Source of the DNA: Squalus acanthias
Lineage: Eukaryota
Length of the DNA: 64,000 nt
Assembly (NCBI GenBank): GCA_030390025.1
Contig: CM059432.1
Coordinates: forward strand, 84,756,001 to 84,820,000
Direction of reading: 5' to 3'
Below the pieces are notes generated by a model, which saw only the letters and a program-made list of their open reading frames with translations, did no database searches and was not told where the DNA came from. The position numbers were made by a program, and so were the translations under genes. This document shows, piece after piece, positions 11,184-58,630 of this stretch. Every line of letters begins with the position of its first letter. Position 1 is the stretch's first letter.

Positions 11184-11355
11184 TTTGTATCTGACGGGGA
11201 GCAGGGACGGGAGGTTACAGAAGAGCTCGAGAGTGAAGAGTCAGAGGGGGACAGAGACATGGAAGTGCGGGGTGGGATGGCATCATGGGAAAGGTTAGTG
11301 AGGGGCAGAAGGAGGGAGAAGGGGCAGCTCCTCAGCCCAAACCTGATGGAAGGAA

Positions 11356-13022
11356 TGTAAGGGATTCTGACCCTGCGTGTCTCGCAGCCTGTGAGATTCA
11401 CGCGGCTCTGTGCAGCCTGTATGTCAGTGCGGGTCTAGGCCTCGTTGCCTGTTCTGGTCTCCAGCCAGTCTGGGAACACTAGACACACCTGTGAGTGGTT
11501 CGAATCACTCTCCCTTACGGTTCTAGACACTGGACTTAGATGCGAGAGCAGTAATGGAGATGAAACTCATGTAGACTCGGTTTGAATGGTACGAAATGGA
11601 AAATCTTTATTGCATGATACTTAAGATTATGAAATACATGTCATAAGCACAGATTAATGACAGTACAATCTTACAAACAGTTATATAGTCGATCTTAGGG
11701 AAACGAGGAACGAACGGCACAAAGTAAATAGGGGCACACATTACAAATATCCTTAATCCTTAAACCCTCCCCTATCAATATCTATCCTAAACTAGATTCG
11801 TAGGATCTCGAGACTCATGCTCACCACTCGTGATAACTCGGAGAAATTCCGAATAGCTGATCGGATGTTTTTCACCGCAGCACCCACGTGTCGGTCAGGA
11901 GATCTCCTGGTCCCACTTGTTTACTTGCTTCTGCTGCTCCGGCTAGCAGGCTGGAACGTCTGCTGTGATGAAGACCTGTGTTGGTTGGTTTAACAGGTAC
12001 TTTTCGAGCACAGTTGTCGATATCATCGATACGATATGTTTCTTTGCAAGTTCGAAGAAGTCTTCCTGGCAAGGAAAACTTGGCTAATCGACCTACAGGC
12101 GCGGTCGGGATTTACTGACCGTGGCGATGGATATGGTCTTCCTCTCTTCTCATCTCATCTCATCTCATCTCATCTCATCTCATCTCGGGCCTTTGGTTCC
12201 GCTGCCAGTTACCAACATAGGTCTTCGTTACGCGACACGAGGTAGATCCGAACGGATCAGAAAGTTCAACAGTCTTTTCAGAAGAGGCAACAGGCAAGCA
12301 GAAGCGAGCCCAACTACGAGTACACAGGAGCAGCCACGAGGTTACGAAAACAAGAGCACAGGAGCAGCCACGATGATAAGAGCAGCAAGAGAAAGATGGA
12401 CGGTTTGGAGCCTGCAATTATAGTGCAAAATCTTCCGTTTCCCGCCCAACTATAATGTCCATTCTTTTGTTTAGGGTCTGGCGCTCAAATGTCTTGTATG
12501 GGTGATCTCCGTTCTTAATGGGTTTCGGGGCTACTCGTAAATGTCTGAGTACCTGTTAATATTTCTCCCATTGTTAAATCGGTCGGTGTTCTCCCTGGAG
12601 GGGTTTGGGGCTTCCAAGTGTCCTGTATAACTACCTGCTAACGGCTCTCTCATCGTAGAGTCGTTGGGATTTTACATATTAATGTCTTTTGGATGGGCCC
12701 TTGATTACTCGGTACAATGGCTTTCCTTTGTACCTGGGAGACCGATTTCAGTATCTATGTGTATACTGCAAACCCATAATGTCTCGTGTATTATCTTCAC
12801 TGTGCTGAATCTTAATCGATCTTGCACAAATGTTTATTGGAACGCCATCTTGTCTGCCTGTTGAAAAGTCTAGAATGTTCTGTCACGAGGTGCGGCGGCC
12901 ATTTTACAGGCTGCTTGTGTCCACTTTAAACCTGCCAGCATTCTGCTGAAATAAAAGCTGTTTGAACGAAACTCTGTGTTTTCTCCTTATTAATAAAATC
13001 GCGATATATTGCGAATTCTACA
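11356..13022 (-). repeat. 3' LTR (1667 bp)
   Basis: Direct repeat of 22477-24138; termini TGTA...TACA; contains (TCTCA)7. Confidence 0.97.
11606..11611 (-). terminator. Candidate polyadenylation signal AATAAA in the 3' LTR
   Basis: AATAAA on the minus strand about 250 nt before the LTR end; a second AATAAA at 12833-12838 makes the choice tentative. Confidence 0.5.
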
Positions 13023-13034: not shown

Positions 13035-13472
13035 GATGCGAATAACTCCGCTTATCGTATCAAAAATCATAGTGGTGAGCAATATTATCTCGATTTCTCT
13101 CCGAATCCAGTAAATTAATCCCATAATTTTAACCTAGCTAGGGTCTCTGTGTCGTCCTCATTTCCCAAGAAAATTACATTTTATATCACCGTAGGCATTA
13201 TTTGCCCTTAAACTTACACCACTTGTTTTCCTTCCCGGCGTAACCAGGCCGATGCCTCTCGTATCACCTGTATATTCATCTTTTATTCAGGGAAAGGAAA
13301 AACAAAACCCAAAACCAAACAATCATTTTTAACTGTAACACCATCACCAAAATAATCAACACCAACTCTTAAAACATGTCGAGTTCCCAACGTATTTACA
13401 ATCTCTGAAAATCATCATCGAGTACAAACTTCCGCGGCGCACGTGGCGAGCGGGAGTGACGCCATTTTCCGA

Positions 13473-15824
13473 TCACACGGTGCTTTCATCGTGCACGCGC
13501 ACGTAACGTTCTCGCCACTCTCCCGTGTTTTCATGCTTGGTGAGGCGCTTGTCTCTTTTACAATGTACGACCAATAGGTACACTACAATGAAAACTTGGC
13601 ATACGACTAAAATGTGGGAGGCTATTCTGATCCATGAAGGCACTTCAATATTGGTGAACAGATTCCACCACGGTGGAACTACTATATCCAAAATGTCTGT
13701 TCCTATTTCGACAGTTTTCTGTTCTAATGTGTAAAAGTGTTTCTGTGACACCGCGACGGCTTTTAAAAGCTTGGTGAGGTGTTCAGGGAGAGGGGGAATG
13801 AGGTATCCAAAATGCGCGACGAATCGCTGCAAGTCGGTGAAATTCTCTTTTACTGTGAGATGAACAGTGGATGGTTCAGGGATTGGGATAATTCGCTGTT
13901 GTGCTACTTGAACTTCCGCCCTGGGTTTAAAACAGAAACTGCTGTCACTCACCGGACACCGGCTACGGTTTCCATGCTGGTAGTGTTGCGCTGCAGTGGT
14001 AACACAATATGTTCCACCCCCGATGTATGCTACCTGCGGAGGCACATGATCTTGTGCCATTGCCTCCATGGTGCAATTCATGGACTTGGCGCCAGTCGTT
14101 CTGAACCCGCACTGTGGTGTTAAAAAGGCATTCAAGTGCTGGGGGCACAGTATTATGTGTGCTCCCCTGCCACGACAACCAGAGAGATCTGTACCTGTCA
14201 TCGTTTGCTCCCAGCGGATGACGTAAGGTGGAACCGCTGCATAACGAATGTGGGCTCCCCCCTGAATGACACCAATGTTCTCTACCCGATATACCGGGGC
14301 GGGCTTTGCTGTGTCGCCCAAAACCGGCATGCGTAATACTATTCCCATAATAGTATGGTTTGAACGTCCGCAGTCCACGGGGACTGGGTAAGCTTCTGAA
14401 GCTAGCCTGAGCTGGCACGGACTTAATGCGTTCTGAAAAGGGTGGAGCGCCCGCAGGTGTTTGTTACTTATCCAGGACGGAACCAAACCTTGTTTTAAAT
14501 CCTCCAAATTACTGCGGCCCTCGCCCAGTAACCACGCCCCGTAAAGCACGCACACCTCGTTCTGCGCAGCTTGATCGGATGCATTCCGATCTTCCCTAAT
14601 CAGGGCATTTACCGTCTTTGCATGTTTCTCCAACTCTGCTATAATTTCCTTTAAATGGAGAGTCATGGCTTGGTCCTCGTGTAGACCCGACCCTACCACT
14701 TTATTCTCATCTGTTAGAATGTCCTTTAATTGTGTCTTTAAACCATTAATCTGGGTCTGCAGCTCCACACTGTCTAGAGCGTTGACCACAGATGTACCCG
14801 TGTTAAAAGCAGTGAACGCATCGTTCACCAAACCCCTTCTTTGCCTCCCTGCTTGATTCAAAACTTCCTGTGGTGCGGTGTACAAACTTGTCTTATCAAT
14901 TTCCGCGAAATCGAATTCGTAAAATTGTCTGAACATCTTGGTCAACAGGACCTGATACAACTGTTCCGTCTTTTTGGGGCACCACTCTGGTAACCGCACC
15001 TCGGTGAGATTTAAAATCACCGAGGCCACCGCGTAATGTACCCCCTGAAATAGTATCTGGTCTGTGGGGACCAGTACCAAACCATTCCCGGGTCCCTTAC
15101 TAGTTTTAGGGCACCCTTCTTCCTCAGCTAGAACCACCGGAATCGTGGGCGGGGCTTTGCGTGGGCGCGTAATGAGCTCAGTGGCATTTACTGGGATCGG
15201 GGAGAATGGGGCTCCGCACCCCCTGGTGCTCGCATCCCACCTCATCCCCTGTCCGTTATCCTGCCATTGATTAATGAAAAATATGGAGATGCCTTTGGGG
15301 CAAACGTACTTTGACCCCCACATACATACATAAATTCCCTCATCCGGTTCCCACCATTTGTCCCAACAGACTTTCACTTGTCCGTCTGTCCCCGTAATTG
15401 TCCGATGGGTATTATTACCCAGTCGTTCCCACTCGACCGAAGAGTTCCTCATAGTGTTGCTCAGCTTTCGCAGCCACCACCATCGGCTCAATGGGACCTT
15501 CCCACTACAAGTCAAACAAATCCGTTTGCCGACGGTGACGCTGATCCTGGGTGCGATGATCCTTACTTTGGGGCACAGTAAAGAAGTCTCTTTGTAGGCA
15601 AACCCCGATGTGCTGGAATACTCCGTTGAGTTCGTTCCCAGCCATCCTGGCCACCTTCCCTTGTGGAAATAGGTGCTGGTCTCCTCTGCCTCCCGTCTTC
15701 CGGTCCCATCCACCGCGATGGGGGCCGTGTCCCCGGAACATCCAAACACCACGACATCCTTGGTGCGGCCTCGATAGGCCAATCCACATCCGATTGCCAC
15801 GAGCAATACTAGAATTCGTTCCAT
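13473..15824 (-). CDS. env: Env glycoprotein, 783 aa: signal peptide, Ig-like domain, F-type class I fusion protein with furin site, TM anchor
   Basis: ATG at 15824 opens a hydrophobic signal MERILVLLVAIGCGLA. Several NxS/T sites; RQRR/GLV cleavage at 14835-14846 followed by a heptad region and a Cys-rich block; TM ILVVCQVFIVVYLLVV; short tail. Confidence 0.92.
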   Translation of the reverse strand: MERILVLLVAIGCGLAYRGRTKDVVVFGCSGDTAPIAVDGTGRREAEETSTYFHKGRWPGWLGTNSTEYSSTSGFAYKETSLLCPKVRIIAPRISVTVGKRICLTCSGKVPLSRWWWLRKLSNTMRNSSVEWERLGNNTHRTITGTDGQVKVCWDKWWEPDEGIYVCMWGSKYVCPKGISIFFINQWQDNGQGMRWDASTRGCGAPFSPIPVNATELITRPRKAPPTIPVVLAEEEGCPKTSKGPGNGLVLVPTDQILFQGVHYAVASVILNLTEVRLPEWCPKKTEQLYQVLLTKMFRQFYEFDFAEIDKTSLYTAPQEVLNQAGRQRRGLVNDAFTAFNTGTSVVNALDSVELQTQINGLKTQLKDILTDENKVVGSGLHEDQAMTLHLKEIIAELEKHAKTVNALIREDRNASDQAAQNEVCVLYGAWLLGEGRSNLEDLKQGLVPSWISNKHLRALHPFQNALSPCQLRLASEAYPVPVDCGRSNHTIMGIVLRMPVLGDTAKPAPVYRVENIGVIQGGAHIRYAAVPPYVIRWEQTMTGTDLSGCRGRGAHIILCPQHLNAFLTPQCGFRTTGAKSMNCTMEAMAQDHVPPQVAYIGGGTYCVTTAAQHYQHGNRSRCPVSDSSFCFKPRAEVQVAQQRIIPIPEPSTVHLTVKENFTDLQRFVAHFGYLIPPLPEHLTKLLKAVAVSQKHFYTLEQKTVEIGTDILDIVVPPWWNLFTNIEVPSWIRIASHILVVCQVFIVVYLLVVHCKRDKRLTKHENTGEWRERYVRVHDESTV

Positions 15825-15837
15825 CCTTCCTTGGTTC

Positions 15838-15862
15838 CTGTGATCAGATAGAATGAGGTAGC
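15838..15862 (-). promoter_or_regulatory. Candidate env splice acceptor
   Basis: CTACCTCATTCTATCTGATCACAG/G lies 13 nt upstream of the env ATG. Confidence 0.55.
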
Positions 15863-16136
15863 CAGCCTCGCAAGAGTCTCTGGCTTTTGTGAAGGGTGAG
15901 CGGGTCCCCTGACCTCGCCTCACGTAAACTTCCACGTTTGCTGTATAAACTTTTCACTAAACCTATCTTTAAAACTCCCATCATTTTATCGTTTTCTGTT
16001 TAAAACACTACAAACTTAACCTTATTAAAACTATAAACTTAACCTTGAACTATTAACTTAAAACTTAACCTTGAACTATAAACTTAAAACTTAGAACTAT
16101 AACTATACAGTGCCGCCCGTTCTCAGGGCGGCCCCT

Positions 16137-19100
16137 TTAAATTCTGAGAAGGCTGCTGCGAGCTCTTCCCGACGGTGGGAGGGCACTGACCCTTCCCTCT
16201 GATCTGCCGCAGCCTGTTGCTGCGCTGACCCTTCCCTCTGATCTGCCGCAGCCTGTTACTGCTGCGATGTGGCCGGTCTGTATCTGGGTTATCTTAACCT
16301 TAAATTTTCGCCTTGGGGCAGTCTGGGGACATGACCACATCCTCCTGGGCTGGGGTTCTCTACCTGACCTACGGGGAGTTGCTATGGGCGGGGGTTCCGT
16401 GACGGACGGACCGGGTTCCGAGACTTCCATCGGGATGACCTGGGGTTCCATCACAGTCGCTGGCTCCGCCTCCGCTGACTCCGCCTCCCTAACCTCGGGG
16501 CTGGCAGTTCGTGGCTCCGCCCTGCTTGGCCCAGCAGGCGGCCCTTCACTCGTGATCTCTGCCTCCCCTGAGGACTGGACGTTCAAAGCGGGCGGCCACA
16601 TCTCTGGGAGCCACACCGGTACTCTCTGTGCTCCCATAGCGGCTGGCCCTGCCTCCTCTAGCTCCTCCCTCCTGTCTTCGGGACCTGCAGCTTGGGTGTC
16701 CACCCTGTGTTGATCTCTACCTACAGCCCCCATTCCCTCCAGACCGTTCCTCAGAAACCACCCGTCATCATCACTATTCTCATCTGCACTATCCTCATCT
16801 GACCAGGGTGCCCTGAATTCTTCCTCATCTAACCCCCAATTCCAGAAAAACGCTGCATGATCGTCCGGGATGTCCCTTCCCCTGATGCAAGCTGCTATGC
16901 CTGCCTGTGTGCCTTGTGGTCCTACCTGGGGCTGTGCTTTCCCGTTGGCGGGATTTACCCCTGTAGTTTTCCCTTGCGCACCTGGCTGGTACAGTTTGCA
17001 TTGGTTTATGTGGAACCACTTAGTGCGCCGTGGTACTTTTACGGCGTAAACCATGGGACTCGCCTTGTCTACAATGTTGTAGGGTCCCATATACAGTGGT
17101 TCCAGACTCCCTACTCTGGCATAGTTTCTGACCATGACCTGGTCTCCCACTTCCCACTCCCGCGTTTTGCGGGGTTCCAGCAACAAGCGATTGCCCTGAT
17201 GCTGCCTTCCCATGTTCCCAGCCGCCTGCTCATAAACTTGCTTCAGGCGCTCCAAGAGAGTCTGGGCGAACTTGTCCCTGCTTATCTCTTGGAGCTGACC
17301 CTCAGTGAGCACCGGGGCTAGCACATGGGTGGGGGTTCGCATGAGCCTGCCGGTCATTACCTCGTGCGGGGAGTACCCCGTACTTTTTGACTGACTGGCC
17401 CGGACCCCCATGAGGACTAAAGGCAGAACTTCCGCCCATTTTTGGGGCGAGTTCCTAGTCTCTTTCCTCAATTTCTCCTTCAGGGTCCGGTTCATACGTT
17501 CAACAATCCCGGATGACTGGGGATTGTGTGCTACGTGCCACTTCCCTTCAATGCCCAAAAGCATGAGGGTGGTCTGCATCACCTGGCCGGTGAAATGACT
17601 CCCTTGGTCTGACTCCACAAAACGGGGGAGTCCCCACCGCGAGAACACTTCCCGGACCAAGATTTTTGCTGTACCTAGTGCCGTAGCTGTTCGACAAGGG
17701 AAGGCTTCCACCCACTTGGAAAACACATCCACCAGGACGAGGCAGTACTTATAACCTCCCTGGGTGGTGGGCAGGGGTCCTATATAGTCGATCTGTATCG
17801 ACTGCCATGGTCCCTCTACCCTTCTTACGTGTCCCATGGGCACCTTCCTTTTCTGGGGGTCTGGGTTGTTTGCAGCGCACACAAGACAGTTTGCACAGAA
17901 CTCGCGGACTTGTTCCCTGAGCCCTGGCCACCATCCCGCTTGCTCTACCCGTTGCCAGGTAACCTCGGGCCCGGGGTGCCCTGCCCCTGGTCCCTCGTGA
18001 GCCAACTGGAGGAATTCCCTCCTGTGCTGCTGTGGCACAACCCACTGCTCCTCGCGGAACAGCATGCCTTCCTTAACTGAGAGGGTTGCCGTACTGTACG
18101 GACCTTCTACCTGTCTCCCCTCAGCAATCGTTTTTAGGACTGCTTTTAGGGCGGGATCCTGGGCTTGGACGGTCTTAAGGTCTAGGGGCAATGCTACCCT
18201 GGTGTTCCCGGGATTCCCGTCCCCGCCTCGGACCGCTGCTATGGGTCCGGCCCTATAGGGGTTCCAGAAAGTGCCGTCGCGGGCACCTTCCCTGGCTAGC
18301 GCATCCGCCTGCCGGTTGCCTTCCCCACGGGGCTCTGTGGAGGAGTGAGCTTTCACCTTATGGATGAAAATCTCTCCTTCCTCCCCTACTGCTGCTGCTA
18401 AGATCTTTTCCAGCAAGGGCTTCACCGTTAAAGGTCGCCCGTCCGCGGAGGTGTATCCGCGGCGGGACCAAATGGCCAGGTATTCCGTACACGAATTGCA
18501 GGTGAACATACTGTCCGAGCAAATCGTGTATGGGGTTGGGAAAATGTCTGGGTGGGTCACAACGTACACCACGGCAGACAGCTCAGCTTGCTGCGCGCTC
18601 ATGGTGCTAGGGAGCTTGATCGCCAGGGCAAGGTCTGCCGCAGGGTCATAAACTCCACACCCTGTGAGTCGCTCGCCAGCAGATACTGTGCTAGACCCAT
18701 CAACATAAATCTCGCGCCCATTGGGATGTATCCCGGCCCGTAAACCTATGTTGACGTCCCACACCCCTTCCACCGAACACCGGTGGGCTGTACCGGGGTA
18801 TACCAAATTGGCCGCAAGCCTGGGCTCGCAAAGACCTTTTACTCTAAGATCCAACTGGGAGAGAAGAAGGGTCCAACGCGCAATGCGCGCGCTGCTTACG
18901 GTCCCGTCTTTAATCCTCCCATCCAGAAGCATCTTAGTTGGTGTGTGATGTGTGAGGAGAGTGATGGGAGAGAGCCCTGTGAAGATCGCTGATCTTTTCA
19001 CAGCCCAATGCGTGGCTAAAAGGTGCCTTTCGCAATTGGAGAAACTTCTCTCCACATCCGTTAACACCCTGGATGAATAGACAACCGGCCTCAGCTTGCC

Positions 19101-20660
19101 GTGACGCTCTTGGAGCAGCACGGCGCTTAAGCTGTCTCCGCTGGCAGCTACCTCCAGGAAAAACTCCCTCCCCCCATCTATGGCCCCTAAGGCTGGCGCG
19201 GTCTGCAGATCCCTTTTTAACTTCTCGAAGGCTGCTTGGCAGCCCTCGTCCCAAAACCACTCCACCCCCTTATGGAGGAGTCGGAGGAGCGGCGCTGCTG
19301 TGGCCGCATAATCTTCGATAAAATCCCTGCAGTAACCGGTCAGTCCCAAGAAGGACCTCACACCCCTTACGTTGTTGGGAATCGGTAATTCTTGCACCGA
19401 CTCCCTCCTTGCTTTGTCTATGGCTCTTTCCCCAGCGCGTATGGTCAGTCCCAGGAATTTTACTTCCCGCTGACCGATACGTGCTTTCTTAGGATTTATT
19501 TTAAAACCCTTTCTCGCTAGCAGCTCCAATAACTCGTCCAGTAGTGGTCCATGCTCCTCCCTTGAGTCCGTAAATAGGAGCAAATCATCCACATACTGCA
19601 CTATCTGATTGGGCTGACTAAACTCCTTTAAACTTCCTGCCATACACTGATGAAAAATACTGGGGCTATTGTGGAAACCCTGTGGCAGACAGTTCCACGT
19701 GTACTGTTGCCCTTTGAAAGTAAAGGCAAACTTGTACTGGTCCTCTCGCCGCAGCGGGATGGACCAAAAACCGTTCGAGATATCCAGCACCGTGAACGTG
19801 GTCGCGGACGCTGGGATGCTCCCTATTAGGTCAGCAACTGCTGCTACTGTGGGCGCGCAGGCGGGAATGTTACTGTTAAGGACTCTGTAGTCCACCGTGG
19901 CTCTCCACGAATTATCCGGCTTCCTAACCGGCCATAATGGGGAGTTCACGTGTGTGGCTATCGGCCTCAACACGCCCTGCTGCACCAAGGAGGACATTGC
20001 TGTCTCCATATCGGGTTCTGCTTCTTTGGGGAAGTTATACTGCTTTTGGGGTCGGGTCATGGGGTCCCCATCTATGCTGACCTCAAACCCGACCACTCTC
20101 CCACAATCGTGCTTGTGGGTTGCAAACGCGTGCATATTATCTGACACGTACGTTTGCATGTCCGTTGGGACATCTGCGACCATAAGCCTGAGGTCGTAGC
20201 CTCCGGATGGCTGTACGGTACACAGGACCCCTGTTTCTTCCTCCCCCGGAATCACTATTACCTCGCCTTTTTCACCTTTAGCCCCCCAGAGACAGTGATT
20301 TCTGAGGTCCACGAGGATCCCGTGTCCCGCTAGGAGATCGGACCCGAGAATACCTCTTCCACCCCCCTTTTGCCATGCCATCAGTATACACTTCCACTTA
20401 AGGCGAAGTGTTCCTAAACGAATGGATAGCGGAAGGGAAAACGTGCCAGCCTGTTCTTTTCCTGTGAACCCTGCTAACGTGAATGGGACCTTGGTAGATA
20501 GCGGCGAGTCAAAAGGGTTATCAGTATGGATTATGGTGCAAGAAGCTCCCGTGTCCAACAAATAACTACCCTTCTGTTTCTCTACCTCCATCTCCACCAC
20601 AGGTCGCCTCCACGCATCATAGCTAAGCGGACACAGGTAGACGGGCTGCGCCGGTTCTAG
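16137..20660 (-). CDS. pol: Pol polyprotein (PR, RT, degenerate RNase H tether, RNase H, integrase, C-terminal extension), expressed by readthrough from gag
   Basis: LLDTGAS protease; LDISNGF, LPQGF and YVDD RT motifs; YVDGS..AEL..SDS..GNRQAD RNase H; HHCC, D-D-E (QIDY, SDQG, VERMN) and GPY integrase motifs. The frame is open from the codon right after the gag stop. Confidence 0.96.
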   Translation of the reverse strand, partial: LEPAQPVYLCPLSYDAWRRPVVEMEVEKQKGSYLLDTGASCTIIHTDNPFDSPLSTKVPFTLAGFTGKEQAGTFSLPLSIRLGTLRLKWKCILMAWQKGGGRGILGSDLLAGHGILVDLRNHCLWGAKGEKGEVIVIPGEEETGVLCTVQPSGGYDLRLMVADVPTDMQTYVSDNMHAFATHKHDCGRVVGFEVSIDGDPMTRPQKQYNFPKEAEPDMETAMSSLVQQGVLRPIATHVNSPLWPVRKPDNSWRATVDYRVLNSNIPACAPTVAAVADLIGSIPASATTFTVLDISNGFWSIPLRREDQYKFAFTFKGQQYTWNCLPQGFHNSPSIFHQCMAGSLKEFSQPNQIVQYVDDLLLFTDSREEHGPLLDELLELLARKGFKINPKKARIGQREVKFLGLTIRAGERAIDKARRESVQELPIPNNVRGVRSFLGLTGYCRDFIEDYAATAAPLLRLLHKGVEWFWDEGCQAAFEKLKRDLQTAPALGAIDGGREFFLEVAASGDSLSAVLLQERHGKLRPVVYSSRVLTDVERSFSNCERHLLATHWAVKRSAIFTGLSPITLLTHHTPTKMLLDGRIKDGTVSSARIARWTLLLSQLDLRVKGLCEPRLAANLVYPGTAHRCSVEGVWDVNIGLRAGIHPNGREIYVDGSSTVSAGERLTGCGVYDPAADLALAIKLPSTMSAQQAELSAVVYVVTHPDIFPTPYTICSDSMFTCNSCTEYLAIWSRRGYTSADGRPLTVKPLLEKILAAAVGEEGEIFIHKVKAHSSTEPRGEGNRQADALAREGARDGTFWNPYRAGPIAAVRGGDGNPGNTRVALPLDLKTVQAQDPALKAVLKTIAEGRQVEGPYSTATLSVKEGMLFREEQWVVPQQHRREFLQLAHEGPGAGHPGPEVTWQRVEQAGWWPGLREQVREFCANCLVCAANNPDPQKRKVPMGHVRRVEGPWQSIQIDYIGPLPTTQGGYKYCLVLVDVFSKWVEAFPCRTATALGTAKILVREVFSRWGLPRFVESDQGSHFTGQVMQTTLMLLGIEGKWHVAHNPQSSGIVERMNRTLKEKLRKETRNSPQKWAEVLPLVLMGVRASQSKSTGYSPHEVMTGRLMRTPTHVLAPVLTEGQLQEISRDKFAQTLLERLKQVYEQAAGNMGRQHQGNRLLLEPRKTREWEVGDQVMVRNYARVGSLEPLYMGPYNIVDKASPMVYAVKVPRRTKWFHINQCKLYQPGAQGKTTGVNPANGKAQPQVGPQGTQAGIAACIRGRDIPDDHAAFFWNWGLDEEEFRAPWSDEDSADENSDDDGWFLRNGLEGMGAVGRDQHRVDTQAAGPEDRREELEEAGPAAMGAQRVPVWLPEMWPPALNVQSSGEAEITSEGPPAGPSRAEPRTASPEVREAESAEAEPATVMEPQVIPMEVSEPGPSVTEPPPIATPRRSGREPQPRRMWSCPQTAPRRKFKVKITQIQTGHIAAVTGCGRSEGRVSAATGCGRSEGRVSALPPSGRARSSLLRI

Positions 20661-22472
20661 TCATGGGGTACTATTAGACGGTCCTGCGGCACCTACGGGG
20701 CCGGTTGCGACCGCCACCTGTCCACGCGCATTCAAGACCAGCTTGCGCATGGCTCCTAACACTGCTTCGAGGTCGTCCGGAGGGGTGGGTGCACTAGCTT
20801 CCCTAGCCGGGACAGGCGCCTGGGCTCGGACCGCGGGATTTTTATCCTTGGAATCCTTCCAAGGGTTCCTGCAATGCTTGCGCCAGTGCCCTGTCTTCCC
20901 ACACCCGTAACAAGCATTACTTGCCTGTGGGGCGCGATTACCCTCCTGATGCCACTCTCTTTGATACGGGGCTGCGGGTCGTACCTCATGTACTCTTCCC
21001 TTAAGGGGACGTGTTGCCATACCCCTTATATTGCGATAACCTAACGTGAGTCGATTCAAGACCGACTCTTCCGTAATGTTGGGGTCATTGGGATCAAACC
21101 ATGCTTTTGCCTGCTCTCTGACGGCTGGTAAACTGTTGGCTATTATGCACCTAAGCCAATGAGTTAAAGCGGTGCCTTCCACATCTTCGCGCTCGGGCGC
21201 ACCTAGGCAGCTGCGCTCATATACTGGCCACAGCCTGTCGGCAAAAACCTTCGGGGGTTCTCCCTCCATCTGCACTGTCTGTCCCACTCTAGCAAACGGA
21301 CCTTCGTCGTTCGCCCCCAACACTTCTAGGACCTCATTCTTTAATTCCTCATAACTCTTGGTTCCCCTCTTGCTCTCGCCTGAGAGACACTGAAGGACCG
21401 AGCTGTCTAATGAGAACAGCAGCATTTTTGCTGTCTCCCCATCATCGCAGCCGTTAATGGCTGCGGCTTGCTCAACTTCTCTGAAATGTACGGAAGGGTC
21501 GTCTGCCTCGGTCAGCTTCCGTACGTGATTTATCATAGCTCTCAGCTGATGTGAACTGTGAGGCAACACCAACTGTCCGAGGAGATCCCCCGGTTCTTCC
21601 CCACCGTTTCTGCTTGGGCCCCTTTTAATACCCGTTACTGGATACAACGATCCCTTTCCTACTTCTTTTTCAATGGGCTCTTTTGTTTCTTCCATTGCTT
21701 CCTCCCTAACCCAGGTTTCTGAATAGCTGGGTGGCGCGGAGGGCGCAGTGGCTACTACTTCTTCTGCTTTACTTGGTGGGGATTTTCTAAATCTCTCATT
21801 TACTAGCGGCTGGTGTGCCGACGGATTGATAAGGCACACCATGCCGTTCGCATTGTTCACGGCCTTTTTGAGGTGCTCTATCTCCCTTTGGCAGGCGCTA
21901 TGATCGGCTCCCTGAAACTTATCCTCAAGGGCCAACTTATATGCCGCCCTAACCCCCGTTAAGCTCTCTTCTTGAGTTCTTATCTGGGCAGCTTGGCGGT
22001 TACATCTTTCCTTTAACCTGCTTTCATTCAACTTCGCCTCAGTGACCTGGCACTCGAGATAATCTATCCTTGTTTTAAGGTGACTGGAGACTTCCTGGCT
22101 TTCTTGGTTCAACTCATTTAAATTCTTAATGAGCACCTCTCCTCCAGAAACCTTCTCATCCATTTCTCCCTCTAAATGACTGATTCGAGCTACTAGCGCT
22201 GTAATGGTCTGGTTTGAAATCTGAACCTGCCTTTTGTAACACATAAGCCAGACTGCTTTCTCAAGTGTCTTTCTATGTTCTTTACTATCTGTCCACCTTT
22301 CAGCTGCCTCTAGTGGGCTTTTATCCGCTAACAATTCACTTATCCATTTCTTAGTTAGATTAACCTTTCCAAACACATAATCCGCTATCTTTTCCTGCAT
22401 AACATTTCGTACAGTCATTCCAAAATCTAACACACTACCCTCTCGCTGCCAGTGTCCTGCCGCGGTCGCCAT
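20661..22472 (-). CDS. gag: Gag, 603 aa: N-terminal coiled coil, late domain, capsid-like region, one CCHC knuckle
   Basis: Strong Kozak AAAATGG; heptad-rich aa about 80-205; PSAPPSY; MHR-like QMEGEPPKVFADRL; CYGCGKTGHWRKHC. Confidence 0.95.
   Translation of the reverse strand: MATAAGHWQREGSVLDFGMTVRNVMQEKIADYVFGKVNLTKKWISELLADKSPLEAAERWTDSKEHRKTLEKAVWLMCYKRQVQISNQTITALVARISHLEGEMDEKVSGGEVLIKNLNELNQESQEVSSHLKTRIDYLECQVTEAKLNESRLKERCNRQAAQIRTQEESLTGVRAAYKLALEDKFQGADHSACQREIEHLKKAVNNANGMVCLINPSAHQPLVNERFRKSPPSKAEEVVATAPSAPPSYSETWVREEAMEETKEPIEKEVGKGSLYPVTGIKRGPSRNGGEEPGDLLGQLVLPHSSHQLRAMINHVRKLTEADDPSVHFREVEQAAAINGCDDGETAKMLLFSLDSSVLQCLSGESKRGTKSYEELKNEVLEVLGANDEGPFARVGQTVQMEGEPPKVFADRLWPVYERSCLGAPEREDVEGTALTHWLRCIIANSLPAVREQAKAWFDPNDPNITEESVLNRLTLGYRNIRGMATRPLKGRVHEVRPAAPYQREWHQEGNRAPQASNACYGCGKTGHWRKHCRNPWKDSKDKNPAVRAQAPVPAREASAPTPPDDLEAVLGAMRKLVLNARGQVAVATGPVGAAGPSNSTP
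22454..22471 (-). other. Primer binding site, tRNA-Arg(TCG)
   Basis: TGGCGACCGCGGCAGGAC is the complement of the 3' 18 nt of vertebrate tRNA-Arg(TCG) (GTCCTGCCGCGGTCG-CCA, recalled sequence); 5 nt from the LTR end. Confidence 0.88.
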
Positions 22473-22476
22473 TTTC

Positions 22477-24138
22477 TGTAAGGGATTCTGACCCTGCGTG
22501 TCTCGCAGCCTGTGAGATTCACGCGGCTCTGTGCAGCCTGTATGTCAGTGCGGGTCTAGGCCTCGTTGCCTGTTCTGGTCTCCAGCCAGTCTGGGAACAC
22601 TAGACACACCTGTGAGTGGTTCGAATCACTCTCCCTTACGGTTCTAGACACTGGACTTAGATGCGAGAGCAGTAATGGAGATGAAACTCATGTAGACTCG
22701 GTTTGAATGGTACGAAATGGAAAATCTTTATTGCATGATACTTAAGATTATGAAATACATGTCATAAGCACAGATTAATGACAGTACAATCTTACAAACA
22801 GTTATATAGTCGATCTTAGGGAAACGAGGAACGAACGGCACAAAGTAAATAGGGGCACACATTACAAATATCCTTAATCCTTAAACCCTCCCCTATCAAT
22901 ATCTATCCTAAACTAGATTCGTAGGATCTCGAGACTCATGCTCACCACTCGTGATAACTCGGAGAAATTCCGAATAGCTGATCGGATGTTTTTCACCGCA
23001 GCACCCACGTGTCGGTCAGGAGATCTCCTGGTCCCACTTGTTTACTTGCTTCTGCTGCTCCGGCTAGCAGGCTGGAACGTCTGCTGTGATGAAGACCTGT
23101 GTTGGTTGGTTTAACAGGTACTTTTCGAGCACAGTTGTCGATATCATCGATACGATATGTTTCTTTGCAAGTTCGAAGAAGTCTTCCTGGCAAGGAAAAC
23201 TTGGCTAATCGACCTACAGGCGCGGTCGGGATTTACTGACCGTGGCGATGGATATGGTCTTCCTCTCTTCTCATCTCATCTCATCTCATCTCATCTCATC
23301 TCGGGCCTTTGGTTCCGCTGCCAGTTACCAACATAGGTCTTCGTTACGCGACACGAGGTAGATCCGAACGGATCAGAAAGTTCAACAGTCTTTTCAGAAG
23401 AGGCAACAGGCAAGCAGAAGCGAGCCCAACTACGAGTACACAGGAGCAGCCACGAGGTTACGAAAACAAGAGCACAGGAGCAGCCACGATGATAAGAGCA
23501 GCAAGAGAAAGATGGACGGTTTGGAGCCTGCAATTATAGTGCAAAATCTTCCGTTTCCCGCCCAACTATAATGTCCATTCTTTTGTTTAGGGTCTGGCGC
23601 TCAAATGTCTTGTATGGGTGATCTCCGTTCTTAATGGGTTTCGGGGCTACTCGTAAATGTCTGAGTACCTGTTAATATTTCTCCCATTGTTAAATCGGTC
23701 GGTGTTCTCCCTGGAGGGGTTTGGGGCTTCCAAGTGTCCTGTATAACTACCTGCTAACGGCTCTCTCATCGTAGAGTCGTTGGGATTTTACATATTAATG
23801 TCTTTTGGATGGGCCCTTGATTACTCGGTACAATGGCTTTCCTTTGTACCTGGGAGACCGATTTCAGTATCTATGTGTATACTGCAAACCCATAATGTCT
23901 CGTGTATTATCTTCACTGTGCTGAATCTTAATCGATCTTGCACAAATGTTTATTGGAACGCCATCTTGTCTGCCTGTTGAAAAGTCTAGAATGTTCTGTC
24001 ACGAGGTGCGGCGGCCATTTTACAGGCTGCTTGTGTCCACTTTAAACCTGCCAGCATTCTGCTGAAATAAAAGCTGTTTGAACGAAACTCTGTGTTTTCT
24101 CCTTATTAATAAAATCGCGATATATTGCGAATTCTACA
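22477..24138 (-). repeat. 5' LTR (1662 bp)
   Basis: Direct repeat of 11356-13022; adjacent to the PBS; contains (TCTCA)6. Confidence 0.97.
23533..23565 (-). promoter_or_regulatory. Candidate LTR core promoter (GC box GGGCGGGAA then TATAAT)
   Basis: Minus strand reads GGGCGGGAAACGGAAGATTTTGCACTATAATT; motif evidence only. Confidence 0.35.
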
Positions 24139-24491
24139 GGAAGAGGCTGAAACTGCAGGGAAGGTTCAAACAAGAGGTGAAAAAGAGCTGGAGGCTGCAG
24201 GAGAAAGCAACAGCTGCCCGAAAAGTTGGGAAGGAGCATGAGAGGAGGGAAGGGGGGATGGGGGGATTATCAGGCACACTTCCCTTATTTGGAGCCATGA
24301 TTACTGATCAATTTTTAAAGTACATTAGATTAGTATATGTTATGGGAGACAAATTAAACTTCAGGTTTTGATGCTAATATGTGGTGGAGGAATGGCTGTG
24401 CAGAGCGGCGGAATGGATTTGTATGATACAGTGGAATGGTCACGATGTTGTAAATGTTTTTAATGTTCAATAAATAATATATATTTAAAAA

Positions 24492-24942: not shown

Positions 24943-27294
24943 TACCGTGTTTTCACTATCTCTCTGACCCCAAACGATCAGTCCTCAGCAAAGGTCCCAG
25001 CTTCATCCCTTACGCCCCCACCTCAATGAATTTTGAGCGCAAGATGATGCTGAGCTCTTCTTCCGTCGCCTTTGCCTCCATGCCCACTTCTTTGGCCAGG
25101 AGTCTTCCCCTCGCACAGCGGACATTTTCTCCCATCTTCAGAATTCTTGTTCCACCTGGATCCCTCCCTCTGGCCTCTTACCCTCTCTTGATCTTTTCAT
25201 TGGGAACTTTCAGCATGACTTCGGCCATCTCAATTTCTCTACGCCCCTCACTCACTCTAATGTACCTCCCTCTGAACTTCCAGCACTCCGTTCTCTCAGG
25301 TCCAACCCTGACATTGTCATTAAACCTACTGACAAGGGCTGTGGTTTGGTGAACAGACCTCCACTTTACGAAGGCTGAACGCCAACTCTCCAACATCTCC
25401 TCCAACATCCCCCTTGACCACGATCCCACCACCGAGCATCAAGCCATCATTTTCCAGACCGTCACAGACCTCATCTCCTCTGTAGATCATTCCCCCATAG
25501 CCTCCAACCTCATAGTCCCCCAAACCTGCACAGCCCGCTTCTACCTTCTTCCCAAGATCCACAAACAGGACTGCCCTAGTGGATCCATCGTTTCAGCCTG
25601 ATATTACTCCACAGAATAGGATAGTTTTTACTATCTCGACTCTATTTTTTCTCCCCTTGTCCAGTTGCTTCCGACCTATATCCGCGACTCTTCCGACGCC
25701 CTCTGCCACTTGAACAGTTTCCAGTTTTCTGGCCTTAACCATCTCCTTTTCACCATAGATTTCCAGTCCTTCTACACCTCCAGCCCCCACCAGGACGGCC
25801 TGTGGACGCTCCGCTTCTTCTTGAACAGAGGCCTAACTAGTCCCCATCCACCACCACCCTCCTCTGCCTGGCTGAACTTGTTCTTACATTGAACAACTTC
25901 TCCCTTGACTCCTCTCACTTTCTCCAAATACAAGGTGACCCTATGGGAATCCATATGGATCCTAACTATGCCAGCCTTTTCGTGGGATACGTGGAACATT
26001 CTTTGTTGCAGTCCTACTCAGGTCTCCACAATCACTTCTTTGTCTGGTACATTGACGACTGTGTCGGTGCTGCTACCTGCTCTCGCCCCGAACTGAAAAA
26101 TGTCATCAACTTTGATTCTAATTTCCACCCTCCTTTGCCTTCACATGGTCCCTCTCCGACTCTTCCCTTCCTTTCCTCGACTTCTCTATCTCCATTTCTG
26201 GGAATAGCCTGTCAACCAATAACTACTATAAGCCACAGCTACCATGATTACACTTCCTCCCACCCCGCTTCCTGTAAGGACTCTATTCCATTCTCCCAGC
26301 TTCTCCATCTCTGTCGCATCTGTTCTGACGAAGCCACCTTCCACACCAGTACTTCCAATATGTTTTTCTTTTTCCTCAACTGAGGATTCCCCTCCACTGT
26401 TATTGACAGGGCCCTCGACCATGTCCGTCCCATTTCCCGCACTTCTGCCCTCCCACCTCCCACTCCCTCCTAGAACCATGATAGGGTCCCCCTTGTCCTC
26501 ACCTTCCACCTCACCAACCTCCAGATTCAACGGATCATCCTCCGCCATTTCTGCGTCCTCCAGCATGAAGCCACCATCAAACACATCTACTCCTCCCTTC
26601 ACCTTTCAGCATTCTGAAGGGACCATTCCCTCTGCGACACCCTGGTCCACTCTTCCATCACCCTCAACCCCCATTCCCCTTACCATGGCACCTTCCCTTT
26701 AACCTCCTCCCTTCCCACTATCCAGGGCCCCACCCACTCCTGCCAGGTGAAACAGCGATTTACTTGTACTTCCTTCAATTTAGTATACTGTATTTGCTGC
26801 TCACGATGCGGTCTCCTCTATACTGGGGAGACCAAGCGCAGATTGGGCAATTGCTTTGCTAAACACCTCCGTTCAATCCGCAAGCGTGACAATGAGCTTC
26901 CGGTCGCTTGCAATTTTAATTCTCCATCCCGCTCCCACTCTGATCTCTCTGTCCTCCGTCTCCTACACTGTTCCAATGAAGCTCAACGGAAGCTCAAGGA
27001 ACAGTACTTCGTCTTTCGATTAGGCACTTTACAACCTTCCAGACTCGGCATTGATTTCAATAATTTCAGATCATGATCACTGCTCCTATTTTTTTGGACA
27101 GCAGGTGCTGGTAATGGTTCTGCTGTTGCCATTTATACCTCCTCTAGACCTATCTTTTGTTTTTTTACCACTCCCTTTTGCCTTGCACCATCATCCCTTT
27201 TGTCATTTAATCTCTCCTGCTTTCTACCCTATTACAGACCTTCCCTTTTATTCTTTCCTCCCTTCCTCTCCCATTTCCCTGCTTAAAACCTATT

Positions 27295-31038: not shown

Positions 31039-34000
31039 TGTAATATATGTGGGTAGAACAAATGAAGGACAGAGACACGGTGAGTTGCTAGTCAAGGTGC
31101 TTGTTTATTAGGCCAGAGCGAGCCGAGCATGCTCAGACTAAACCATGTGACAAACCATGTGATAATACATTACACTGCTTTCCTCTTAAAAAAAAGTACA
31201 TATTTCCCTCAAATACAACAAAACTATGGTCCCACCTTTCCCAGCATTAAATGTACCACATAACAAAAACGCCTGGCGTTTTTTCGTTTAAATCAACAAC
31301 AAATGCTACAAATGAACTACAAATCCAGTTTAATAGCAGGTTTACGGAGCCTTCCTGATCTCCTTACAAAAGGTTTTGGTGTTGAACCAATTTTCGGGCT
31401 GTTTTGTTCTGGTTCCGAACTCAAAAATGATCCTGTTTCTATCTCAGATTTGTTTGAACCTGGTACTTCAGTTTCTGAAGTCTGAGCAGAGTCAAACTCA
31501 TGTATGTGTTCATCATCAAGTGGTTCAAGATCATGTCTTGGTTCATCTCTAGCAGAGATCCTTTGATCTACATGAACACTTCAATCTCCTCTTCATCAAG
31601 AGTTCTGCTGGGGTATATCCAGTTGTAGTGTGCGGAGTAGTTCTGTACTTCAGCAAGTAATCTACCATGTTTCTTCATGCTGAGTCCCAAACAACCCTGC
31701 AACACTTGCTTTTTGAGAGCTTCTTTCACTATTCTGACTGACCTTTTGGCTGCTCCGTTTGAAGCTGGATGATATGGTGGAACAAACGCGTGTTTGATAC
31801 CATTCCATTTCATGAACTCTTGAAATCGAGCAGAACGGAACTGAGGGCCATTGTCAGAAACAAGCTCTTCAGGTAAGCCATGACAGGCAAAGATAGACCT
31901 CAACTCATCTATGGTACGTTCAGTTGTAGTATTTGAACCCGTGTTTCACTTCAATCCACTTTGAGTGACTATCTACAAGTACCAGAAAATAATCATTTGC
32001 TTTCTCACAGAAGTCTACATTTACTCTCTGAAAAGGTCTACTTGGCCATGACTAGGGTTGTAGTGGAGTTTTGAGTGGTTTGTTTCTGCAATTTTGGCAA
32101 ACGCTGTATTTGCTGACAAGTGATTCAAGATCACTGTCCAATCCAGGCCAGTAAACAATTGATTTCATACTGACGATCCCTGGATGTTCAGTATGAAGTT
32201 CGGCCAGAATTCTATCTCTCAAAGAAGTAGGTACCGCCACTTTGTTTCCCCACTTGATACAACCTTGCTCACAAGACAATTCAGTATGACAGTTATGGAA
32301 TGGTTTCAACCCTGTGTCCAGACACTGATCAGTCCATCCATTCAAGGTGTTTTCATACACTCTTTTCAGTACTGAGTCCTTTTGAGTCTCATCTGCAATT
32401 TCAGCTGCATTCACGGGAAAGTCTTTGTCAACTGCACCTAGCGTGAAACTAACACCTTTAATCCCAACACGAGTCCTCATGTGGCAACCAGGACAAGGCA
32501 TCTGTGGTTGCGTTTTGCTTTGAAGTGCGATATTCAATCGTGTAGTCATATTGTGGCAACAACACTGCCCAACGTTGCATTCCTGATGTGGCCATTGCAG
32601 GGATGGCAGATTTGGGCTCGAATATTGCTAGGAGCATTTTGTGATCGGTTATCAAGGTAAACTTTCTGCCAATCAGGAACTGTTGGAATTTCTTGATTCC
32701 AAACACTATGGCGAGTGCTTCCTTTTCAATTTGCATGCAGTTTCTTTCGTTCTTTGTGAGGGTTTGCGATGCAAACACAATTGGTTTCTCTTGGCCATCA
32801 TCCATTACGTGGCTTATGACAGCTCCCACACCATAGTTAGAAGCATCACACGCTAACTTAAGCTCACGCTCTGTGTCGTAGTGCACCAGTAGAGCATCGT
32901 TAGAGAGACTTCTCTTACAAGCGTCGTAAGCTTCCTGTTGCGTTTTTGTCCACTTTCACTGGACATCCTTCTTGAGGAGCTCGTGCAGTGGAGCTAACAT
33001 GGTCGCTAACGCAGGTAAGAAACGTGTGTAGTACTGGACCATTCCAAGGAAAGATCTAAACTCAGACACGTTCTGTGGCTTTGGAGCATTGATGACAGCA
33101 TCAACCTTTTCCTTAATTGGTTGCAAGCCATTTGCATTAACTTTCAGACCAAAGTACACAACCTCAGGCTGCACAAAAGCACATTTGCTCCTTTTCAATT
33201 TGACATTGTGGGAATTCAACCTCTGAAGCACTAAATCTAACACCTCTAGATTTTCTTCCTCGCTGCTTGTTGCGATCAGCACATCGTCTTGATTGCATAA
33301 GCAATTTAGAATTCCTTGCAAAATCTTATCCATTGTAGCCTGGAAGATTTTGGGGGAGGACTTTATACCATACGGCAGCTTGGTGTCTGAGTACAGTCCC
33401 TTGTGTGTGTTGATGGCGAGATACTATTGACTCTTTTTGTCAACATTCAGTTGAGCAACAGGTCAAGTTTAGAGAAAACCTTTGACCCAGAGAGTGCTGC
33501 ATACAAACCTTGCAATATAGGTAACGGGTACTGCTCATTGTCAATTGCTTGGTTGATAGTAACTTTGTAGTCACCGCACAAGCGTACAGATTTGTCTGCT
33601 TTGGGCACTACCACAATCAGGGTAGCCCATTGACTTTTGTCAGTTTTTATTCGCACTCAGTTATGTCTCAGTTTCTCAAGCTCTTCCTCCACCTGATTTT
33701 TCAACGCATAGGGGACCGGCCTTGCCTTACAATAGACAGGCTTCCCGTTGGACTTGATGCGGATATGCGCGTCATACCTAGTGATGCCCTCATAACTGTC
33801 TGTGAACATGCTTTTATACTTGTTCAGCATTGTGTCGAGTCACTTCTTTGAAGCATCTACACTGAAGACGTTTTCCCAGTCTAGTTTTAACTTTCTCAAC
33901 CAGTCTTTGCCCATGAGGGTTGGCCTGTTGTTGTAGCTCACTACAATAATAGGCAGCTTTACTGACTGGCCATTGTGCTGAGCTGTACATTCCATTTGTC

Positions 34001-56373: not shown

Positions 56374-56583
56374 CTGAAGAATAAACACAAATACAACCAT
56401 AAAAACCTGCACCACGTCTATATGAAAATTATCATAACATTTATCTTTGTGTATTCTCTTTGTAAATCACCACGGTACTCCCGAACCATTGTTTGTTGTA
56501 GTCTAAAACAACTTTCTGCTACCTAGAGCTACCGGGTCTCAATTCTCCCTGGCTTCCAGCACTGAAAAAAAAAACATTTACAG

Positions 56584-58630
56584 TCCAAGACTGTCACTGA
56601 CCTCATCTCCTCTGGAGATCTTCCCCCCACGGCCGCCAACCTCATAGTTCCCCAACCCCGCACAGCCCGCTTCTACCTCCTTCCCAAGATCCACAAACAG
56701 GACTGCCCCGGTAGACCCATCGTTTCAGCCTGTTCTTGCCCCACGGAACTTATCTCTTCCTATCTCGACTCTATTTTTTCTCCCCTTGTCCAGTCTCTTC
56801 CCACCTACATCCGCGACTCTTCCGATGCCCTCCGCCATTTTAACAGTTTCCAGTTTCCCGGCCCCAACCGTCTCCTCTTCACTATGGACGTACAATCCCT
56901 CTACACCTCCATTCCCCACCAGGATGGCCTGAGGGCGCTCCGCTTCTTCCTTGAACAGAGGCCCAACCAGTCCCCATCCACCACCACCCTCCTCCGCCTG
57001 GCTGAACTTGTTCTCACATTGAACAACTTCTCCTTTGACTCTACCCATTTCCTCCAAGTTAAAGGTGTTGCTATGGGTACCCGCATGGGTCCTAGCTATG
57101 CCTGCCTTTTCGTGGGATATGTGGAACACTCTTTGTTCCAGTCCTACTCGGGTCCCCTCCCTCACCTCTTTTTCCGGTACATTGATGACTGTATCGGTGC
57201 CGTCTCCTGCTCTCGCCCTGAACTAGAGCATTTCATTCACTATGCTTCCAATTTCCACCCTTCCCTCACCTTCACATGGTCCATCTCCGACTCTTCCCTT
57301 CCCTTCCTCGACTTCTCCATCTCCATCTCTGGGGATAGGTTATTGACCAACATTCACTACAAGCCCACTGACTCCCACAGCTACCTGGACTACACTTCCT
57401 CCCACCCCGCCTCCTGTAAGGACTCTATTCCATTCTCCCAGTTTCTCCGTCTCCGCCGCATCTGCTCTGATGATGCCACCTTCCATACCAGTGCTTCCGA
57501 CATGTCTTCCTTTTTCCTCAACCGAGGATTCCCCTCTACCGTGGTCGACACGGCCCTCGACCGTGTCCGTTCTATCTCCCGCACATCTGCCCTCACCCCT
57601 GCTCCTCCCTCCCGGAACCACGATAGGGTTCCCCTTGTCCTCACCTTTCACCCCACCAGCCTCCACATTCAACGGATCATCCTCCGCCATTTCCGCCACC
57701 TCCAGCGTGATCCCACCACCAAACACATCTTCCCCTCACCTCCCCTTTCAGCATTCCGTAGGGACCGCTCCCTCCGCGACACCCTAGTCCACTCCTCTAC
57801 CACCCCCAGCACCCCTTCCCCTTTGCCCGGCACCTTCCCGTGCACGCGCATGAGATGCAACACATGCCCTTATACCTCCCCTCTTCCCACTGTCCAGGGC
57901 CCCAAACACCCCTTCCAGGTGAAACAGCGATTTACTTGTACTTCCTGCAATTTAGTATACTGTATTCGCTGCTCACGATGTGGACTCCTCTACATTGGGG
58001 AGACCAAACGCAGATTGGGTGACCGCTTTGCGGAACACCTCCGTTCAGTCCGTAAGGGGGACCCCGAGCTCCCGGTGGCCTGTCACTTTAATTCACCGCT
58101 TCACTCCCACTCTGACCTCACCGTCCTCGTCCTATTACACTGTTCCACGGAAGCTCAGCGTAAGCTCGAGGAACAGCACCTCATCTTTCGTTTAGGCACG
58201 CTACAGCCCTCTGGACTCAATATCGAGTTCAACAATTTTAGATCATAACCTCAGCTCCAATCACATTTATATTTTATTTTATCCACCCTTTTATTTGTCC
58301 CCCCCACCTTTTTTTTCCTCCTAGAAGCTGGCAGCTGTCCTTCATTCTGCCAGTGGATTTCACACTTCATTCAGCCTTAATCTGTCACATTAACACCACC
58401 TCTAGCCTTGCATATCTCTTAATGTCTCTTAATGTCTCTTCATCTCCCCCTTTGTTCCTTTATCCCCTCCCCCTTTTCCCAGCTTTACCCTGGCCTTAAA
58501 TCTATTTGATTTCCGGCTCTTCCCAGTTCTGATGAAAGGTCATCGACCTGAAACGTTAACTCTCTTTCTCTCTCCACGGATGCTGCCTGGCCTGCTGAGT
58601 TTTTCCAGCGTTTTCTGTTGTTATTACAGA
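56584..58630 (+). mobile_element. Young 5'-truncated Penelope-like element; frame open about 56584-58248 (RT plus GIY-YIG)
   Basis: FYLLPKIHK, MDVQSLYT, GVAMG, RYIDD, LVYCIRC..LYIGET with no disruption, then 3' UTR/pLTR. Confidence 0.93.
58523..58563 (+). ncRNA. Minimal type I hammerhead ribozyme motif in a Penelope tail
   Basis: AGTT-CTGATGA, stem AGGTC-ATC-GACCT, GAAA-CGTT-AACT. Confidence 0.65.

Follow-up and report, generated by a model that had tools for sequence, protein, structure and literature searches.

The gag-pol junction of a young provirus

A stretch of 64,000 nucleotides from Squalus acanthias (contig CM059432.1, positions 84,756,001 to 84,820,000; below, the window) carries on its minus strand a complete endogenous retrovirus (ERV) of 12.8 kb, and the subject of this study is the junction between its gag and pol genes. 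Its two long terminal repeats (LTRs) differ over 1668 nt by five gap positions and no substitution (99.7% identity). The provirus sits between intact copies of a 4-bp target duplication, and gag, pol, and env are open apart from a TGA at the end of gag. The provirus is very young and intact.

The codons at the junction are ACC CCA TGA CTA GAA CCG GCG CAG CCC GTC TAC. From the gag ATG at 22472 to the pol TAA at 16139-16137, a single frame of 2111 codons (603 + TGA + 1507) with one internal stop was found. The first-pass annotation of the window had described gag as joined to pol in frame by UGA-CUAG, without a frameshift, to give a product of 2111 aa, and this was confirmed on the minus strand, a strand that the annotation had left unstated (Table 1). 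Of the 169 TGA triplets on the coding strand of the element, only the gag stop is part of a TGACTAG heptamer; the composition of the element puts the chance of CTAG behind any one stop at about 0.003-0.004. No slippery heptamer was detected within -150/+60 of the gag stop; a frameshift signal is not needed here. The junction falls under the definition of a type II readthrough signal, a UGA with CUA or CGG behind it (PMC13517186; this and the other papers cited for their content were available in part, and what is attributed to them refers to those parts). The type III signal of gammaretroviruses (UAG-G, then 8 nt of spacing and a pseudoknot of the H type) was rejected, as the stop here is UGA-C.

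Downstream of the stop, the first codon of the GTG, TTG, or ATG kind is a GTG at codon 21 (20600), and the first ATG is codon 24 (20591). This AUG lies just 12 codons ahead of the catalytic Asp, inside the protease fold; the Pfam protease match begins before it, at pol aa 17, which is profile position 2 of 101. A stretch of the type (P/I)L-x-x-x-x-(G/W/V)R(P/H) was seen by eye between stop and AUG in the window element, in eight hand-picked relatives, and in L003, a viral genome that we take to be snakehead retrovirus (SnRV) from its UAGGGC junction, which matches the one given in a review. With conserved protease sequence already present ahead of the first AUG of pol, ribosomes must reach Pol from upstream. 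Initiation at this AUG would cost the protease its N-terminal strand, a part of the dimer interface in the case of HIV protease. An essential in-frame open reading frame (ORF) without a usable start of its own, here the 1507-codon pol, is also a mark of type II readthrough.

Relatives of the element were collected by a Gag protein search and by a query spanning the junction, with X in place of the stop. Gag homologues were found in skate and catshark. All four full-length aligned relatives of the Gag protein (P0112, 46% identity; the skate protein P0270, 52%; P0113 and P0258, 38%) end 1-5 alignment columns from the end of the window Gag. Three further skate Gag records were found, two of which end identically and one of which is frameshifted early. 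No fused Gag relative scored among the longer proteins, in what was a weak search. Read contigs from four runs and three organisms covered all 30 bins of 20150-22900 and revealed copy-private changes at about 100% share at 20523, 20625, 20778, 21572, 22023, and 22140. No variant at 20657-20663 was present among the 40 of 563 read-contig rows listed, an observation that is supporting and incomplete. One X9 contig spans the junction (20542-20699) with four differences, given without their positions within the contig.

These comparisons bear on the possibility that the TGA is a private nonsense mutation, for example by CpG decay, in an active family with a fused Gag-Pol. Fused ORFs do occur among relatives, namely in 10 of the 24 lokiretrovirus consensus elements (PMC7947760) and in P0004 from the coelacanth, a gene model that may be spliced, and the variants were viewed in a fraction of the rows. 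Yet the LTRs are free of substitutions, Gags as divergent as 38-52% identity, at least two skate loci included, stop at the same place, and the copy-private changes leave the stop untouched among the rows listed. The sense codon in other copies that, according to the first-pass annotation, would betray such a mutation was not found in the relatives and rows compared. As to conservation of TGACTAG as a whole, the position of the stop held in every aligned Gag, and for CUAG the result is confined to the absence of change among the rows listed. We consider a private mutation very improbable; the sequence comparisons indicate that the TGA is not a mutation of one copy.

Table 1. Features of the provirus and of its gag-pol junction (positions in the window).
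Feature	Position	Strand	Basis
UGA, sole in-frame stop between gag and pol	20661..20663	-	sequence
CUAG, type II readthrough context	20657..20660	-	sequence and literature
Predicted interrupted hairpin, not significant, beginning about 7 nt past the stop	20594..20654	-	
gag, 603 aa, one CCHC knuckle, TGA end	20661..22472	-	sequence and relatives
pol frame, 1507 aa: protease (PR), reverse transcriptase (RT; YVDD), tether, RNase H, integrase, low-complexity tail	16137..20660	-	
Aspartyl protease domain, Pfam RVP match pol aa 17-111, DTG aa 36-38	20328..20612	-	
env, 783 aa, RQRR furin site; candidate splice acceptor 15837	13473..15824	-	
Primer-binding site overlapping the gag start codon	22454..22471	-	sequence
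5' LTR, TG...CA; TATAA at 22806, AATAAA at 22732	22477..24138	-	
3' LTR; target duplication 11352-11355 and 24139-24142	11356..13022	-	

Placement of the element and comparable junctions

The element was placed by quick RT trees only, the first with 73 of 122 RT segments and the second with 48 segments chosen to cover the vertebrate lineages. In these trees the window RT lies inside the retrovirus clade (Shimodaira-Hasegawa-like approximate likelihood ratio test, SH-aLRT, 97 and 99). It shares an open basal grade with ERVs of frogs and the coelacanth and stands apart from P0023 and from RTs of the foamy, gamma, and epsilon types. The nearest RTs by identity are frog and coelacanth proteins (51-53%), and the node is an open polytomy. 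P0023 is the single lokiretrovirus-type RT in the trees and was labelled by eye against supplement lines. Lokiretrovirus RTs form the sister clade of all other retroviruses; here, grouping with P0023 fails the approximately unbiased test (p-AU 0.025) and the RT is inside the retrovirus clade, so these trees do not support a lokiretrovirus identity of the element. A spumaretrovirus was rejected: the RT falls outside the foamy clade (seven RTs, a separate clade with support 100), pol is in the same frame as gag, and the first pol AUG lies within the protease fold. Spumaretrovirus pol opens with an AUG of its own ahead of the protease, in a frame other than that of gag. An elephant-shark ERV lineage has been reported to cluster with SnRV (PMC4422223).

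L003 is among the nearest full viral genomes found (37% identity over PR-RT). Its in-frame stop, UAG-GGC, lies 30 codons before the protease motif LVDTG, compared with 34 in the window, and the protease N-termini are similar. L003 and the gamma- and epsilonretroviruses resemble the window element in keeping gag and pro-pol in one frame with one stop shortly before the protease. They differ from it in having UAG-G of type III, which is pseudoknot-dependent in Moloney murine leukemia virus (MoMLV), whereas the window element has UGA-CUAG and an F-type Env; the gammaretrovirus-type loci compared all have TAG-G at the junction. In four such loci (L036, L060, L063, and L065), near position 1500, GAC UAG of the gammaretrovirus type holds TGACTAG one base out of frame, which is probably a coincidence.

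UGA itself is on record at gag-pol junctions. UGAAGA, UGACGA, and UGAAGU have been listed for SSSV, ZFERV, and RMEV, respectively (PMC13517186, section 4.1.2, Table 2), and UGACAGG for XtERV-S, for which the authors predicted suppression (PMC8278194). These retroviruses share the in-frame gag-pol UGA and its predicted suppression with the window element, and among them CUAG appears only in a defective bullfrog copy. The contrast drawn in the first-pass annotation, with gamma- and epsilonretroviruses that read through UAG, was incomplete in this respect; the part that stands is the CUA(G) context, which is apparently unreported.

Parallels to the junction were found in lokiretroviruses. The 24 consensus elements in the supplement of PMC7947760 comprise 10 in which gag-pol is labelled as fused and 14 whose pol stands separately. 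Junction frames were checked by hand, and line breaks in the supplement can hide motifs. In all seven separate-ORF junctions read, TGA-CTA is in frame with the pol N-terminus; it continues as CTAG in Ofa, Cne, Pyo, and Sau and as CTAA in Bsp, Dcl, and Lro, with differing flanks. The Loki-Bsp consensus has a one-base indel further downstream of the junction. In the rest of the separate-pol set, the Tfu Gag translation reads X-L-S at this place, Ape starts inside pol, and four others were outside the count. Loki-Pfl, the one fused element read of ten, has CGA-CTA-A at the homologous place; CGA-CTA in place of TGA-CTA is the same opal/arginine swap as in alphaviruses (PMC13517186). Of the 16 TGACTAG matches listed from the supplement, 12 lay off the junction or duplicated another match, as expected by chance. 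The main text of PMC7947760, as available, gave no matches for stop codon, readthrough, frameshift, or splicing.

Lokiretroviruses and the window element also share the tether and RNase H, which are common to all retroviruses, and, as a lead-level assignment, an F-type Env with an RXXR site. The Env of lokiretroviruses is related to Mononegavirales F and has a cleavage site of the RXKR type; the site here is RQRR. They differ in the position of the RT, which here is in the retrovirus clade, and in hosts, as the abstract of PMC7947760 reports no cartilaginous fishes. On its sequence, the junction appears to work like a lokiretrovirus junction; the element is not shown to be a lokiretrovirus. 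The window element combines, on the minus strand at 13473-20660, a retrovirus-clade RT with a paramyxovirus-F-like Env, the latter a published lokiretrovirus trait. This discordance may be due to env exchange or to a shared ancestral env. The defective bullfrog copy is a class III ERV with TGA-CTA-G at the end of gag (PMC8278194 supplement), and no comment on its CUAG was found in the available parts of that paper.

Further scans were directed at the junction outside these sources. A gag query against viral contigs and a pol query against prokaryote genomes returned no relatives. When IMG/VR was scanned for UGA-CUA-R ahead of a protease motif, seven loci with retroviral pol homology were among the matches listed, all seven out of frame; in one of these scans flanks were taken for 80 of at least 120 loci.

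Probable readthrough and the alternatives

Readthrough of the gag stop is the textbook mode of Pol expression in gammaretroviruses. The stop and 3' context of the window junction are those of the alphaviruses Sindbis virus (SINV) and chikungunya virus (CHIKV) and of the vertebrate genes AQP4, MAPK10, OPRK1, OPRL1, and MDH1 (PMC13517186; PMC4132726), so that the earlier description of UGA-CUAG as the leaky context of alphaviruses, AQP4, and MDH1 agrees with the literature. For this type II context, structure is only conditionally needed, and the readthrough at UGACUAG amounts to about 1.3% or more (PMC13517186). It has been shown with reporters that CUAG plus 12 nt after the stop suffices in four mammalian genes, and about 3.5% was obtained for MDH1 (PMC4132726). 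Conservation of the AQP4 extension reaches back to cartilaginous fishes (PMC4132726), which makes it probable that the UGA-CUAG signal is read in the host lineage. The likeness to alphaviruses extends to a polymerase downstream in frame, a conditional need for structure, and the CGA-CUA sense variant of Loki-Pfl. The difference from alphaviruses and vertebrate genes is that the signal here stands at a retroviral gag-pol junction and that readthrough is predicted.

The reading that best fits the frame, the context, the conserved stop position, and the protease sequence upstream of the first AUG is type II readthrough at the gag UGA-CUAG, at a level of a few percent, and we assign it a probability of about 0.82. 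Programmed readthrough as proposed in the first-pass annotation is thus supported. Under this reading, the full-length genomic RNA would be translated from the gag AUG and most ribosomes would halt at the UGA, releasing Gag of 603 aa. The CUAG behind the stop would weaken termination, so that in a few percent of cases a near-cognate tRNA would be accepted; at other UGA codons Trp, Cys, or Arg is inserted. Readthrough would yield the 2111-aa Gag-Pol, to be cut by the protease. The Gag:Pol ratio would probably be set by the context alone, without a pseudoknot, and readthrough of a few percent fits usual Gag:Pol ratios.

Folding of the region downstream of the stop, the check proposed with the earlier annotation, gave a negative result. 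The sequence is no more stable than its shuffles (z -0.82 over the 153 nt downstream of the stop), and no structural stimulator is shown by it. At one synonymous third-codon position (20622-20625) this copy differs from almost all others; the position falls within the predicted hairpin (Table 1) and beside an acceptor-like AG.

This AG belongs to one of two sites from which Pol could be made by splicing, as in foamy viruses. The acceptor would be the AG of CUAG (20656) or the AG at 20622, with a donor in gag or in the leader. The CTAG|A site is phase-compatible with a weak donor at 21302 (two mismatches to consensus), and the AG at 20622 is preceded by 75% pyrimidines, compared with 70% for the env acceptor candidate. 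The CTAG site itself, however, has 55% pyrimidines, a value reached by 27% of 500 YAG sites in the element, and gag yielded no phase-2 donor with at most two mismatches. An RNA spliced from the leader to 20622 would present out-of-frame AUGs first and would lose the conserved protease N-terminus. Moreover, the window RT does not group with foamy viruses, and lokiretroviruses keep the codon CUA followed by G or A, an alternation that would shift the phase of the acceptor. Contigs of two runs guessed to be RNA contained two joints (four over all runs), none of them into 20590-20720; as contigs attest presence but not absence, these were not used as evidence. One contig in each of the guessed-RNA runs skips 155 nt at 21256-21412, with ends AT..AC on the coding strand and 21 letters on the short side, possibly an alignment artefact. 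We regard spliced Pol expression as unlikely.

The weak folding at the junction would also suit a bypass of the UGA in some other way, by an internal promoter with a non-AUG start directly behind the stop, by reinitiation, or by a distant RNA element, as has been discussed for Tca2 of Candida albicans. This unrelated Ty1/copia element has gag-UGA-pol in one frame, and its flanks gave no readthrough in yeast reporters (PMC2194720). Gene callers also start pol of several relatives at near-cognate codons just past the stop, which is a mechanical result. Against a bypass stand the junction context, which is the best-documented leaky motif, and the absence of TATAA between 21030 and the gag stop. 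In addition, retroviral Pol normally gets into the virion through its fusion to Gag. A bypass seems quite improbable to us.

Decoding of the UGA as selenocysteine would also lead from gag into pol. The stop is indeed UGA, and one crude match to a pattern resembling a selenocysteine insertion sequence (SECIS) was found at 13070, behind env. The crude pattern is unselective, however, and Rfam gave no SECIS match (the four matches obtained with E up to 1 fell short of the cut-off and were unrelated). The UGA is in a variable linker and not at a catalytic site. Selenocysteine is hardly conceivable here.

Several observations weigh against readthrough at the UGA-CUAG. Frame, context, and position of the stop in relatives are observed; the readthrough, its rate, and the inserted residue are predicted. 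Inside the lineage of the element, conservation of CUAG rests on the variant rows listed (40 of 563), and no junction DNA of a divergent member of this lineage was found, a metagenome scan giving two distant loci only. The lokiretrovirus and bullfrog junctions belong to other RT branches and are analogies. Not every lokiretrovirus has the stop, as the fused consensus elements lack it, and in Loki-Lch the TGACTAG heptamer is one base out of frame with pol. The hairpin after the stop has z of about -1.3 to -1.6 (18 windows) and ranks 22 of 90 windows along gag-pol. In Tca2, the junction alone gave no readthrough (PMC2194720).

Readthrough at UGA-CUA may have a wider meaning. In the review of readthrough signals, UGACUA is given among animal viruses only for CHIKV, SINV, and PSIV-type viruses (PMC13517186). 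A literature search, with subscription journals mostly outside its scope, brought up no report of a retroviral gag-pol junction with UGA-CUA(G); the term searches included PMC7947760, PMC9040795, PMC12440569, PMC5210030, PMC5930517, and PMC4422223. What appears to be new is the CUA(G) context at such a junction, not the UGA. The more interesting part is the unremarked recurrence of UGA-CUA in lokiretroviruses, a class III frog ERV, and the shark lineage, by which the alphavirus/AQP4-type signal comes to include vertebrate retroviruses of three or more separate RT branches. It also accounts for published lokiretrovirus pol annotations with non-AUG starts downstream of a stop. It has been suggested here, with considerable doubt, that UGA-CUA readthrough driven by context only is a deep and hitherto unnoticed mode of Gag-Pol expression common to lokiretroviruses, basal class III ERVs, and the shark lineage, and may be ancestral for retroviruses. 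In this view, readthrough at UAG with a pseudoknot, frameshifting, and spliced pol would have come later, with opal/arginine switching as in alphaviruses. Alternatively, the recurrence could reflect convergence on the leakiest context. The question bears on the evolutionary order of Pol-expression strategies. The junction offers a small, testable cassette for setting the Gag:Pol ratio without a pseudoknot, and in ERV annotation such UGA codons should not be counted as disabling when intactness is judged.

Other features of the element and the window

The start codon of gag, five bases past the LTR, overlaps the primer-binding site at its TGG (22454-22476, minus strand). The primer-binding site is presumably of the tRNA-Arg(UCG) type. 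A Gag start of the MATAAG/MATTKG type is also present in P0113 and in the skate Gag P0270. By eye only, the N-terminal half of Gag is coiled-coil-like, which may be compared with the SMC-like coiled coil that precedes the capsid in some lokiretroviruses.

In Pol, Pfam matches to RT_RNaseH_2 (aa 470-558) and RNase_H (aa 650-793) were identified. A tail of about 270 aa extends beyond the integrase (16137-16950, minus strand); it is acidic and proline-rich, with a duplicated 14-residue unit near its end. For Env, the nearest Atlas cluster is the fusion glycoprotein F0 (0.94, 207 of 256 features), a lead-level assignment; no Pfam PF00523 match and no PDB match by sequence search were found.

Outside the provirus, a second, decayed RT/RNase H segment was detected at 32533-33393 on the minus strand, with 31% identity to the provirus pol. 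Two C-skewed repeat copies of about 1.7 kb (25450-27090 and 56580-58260), 82-87% alike, probably represent a non-LTR retrotransposon.

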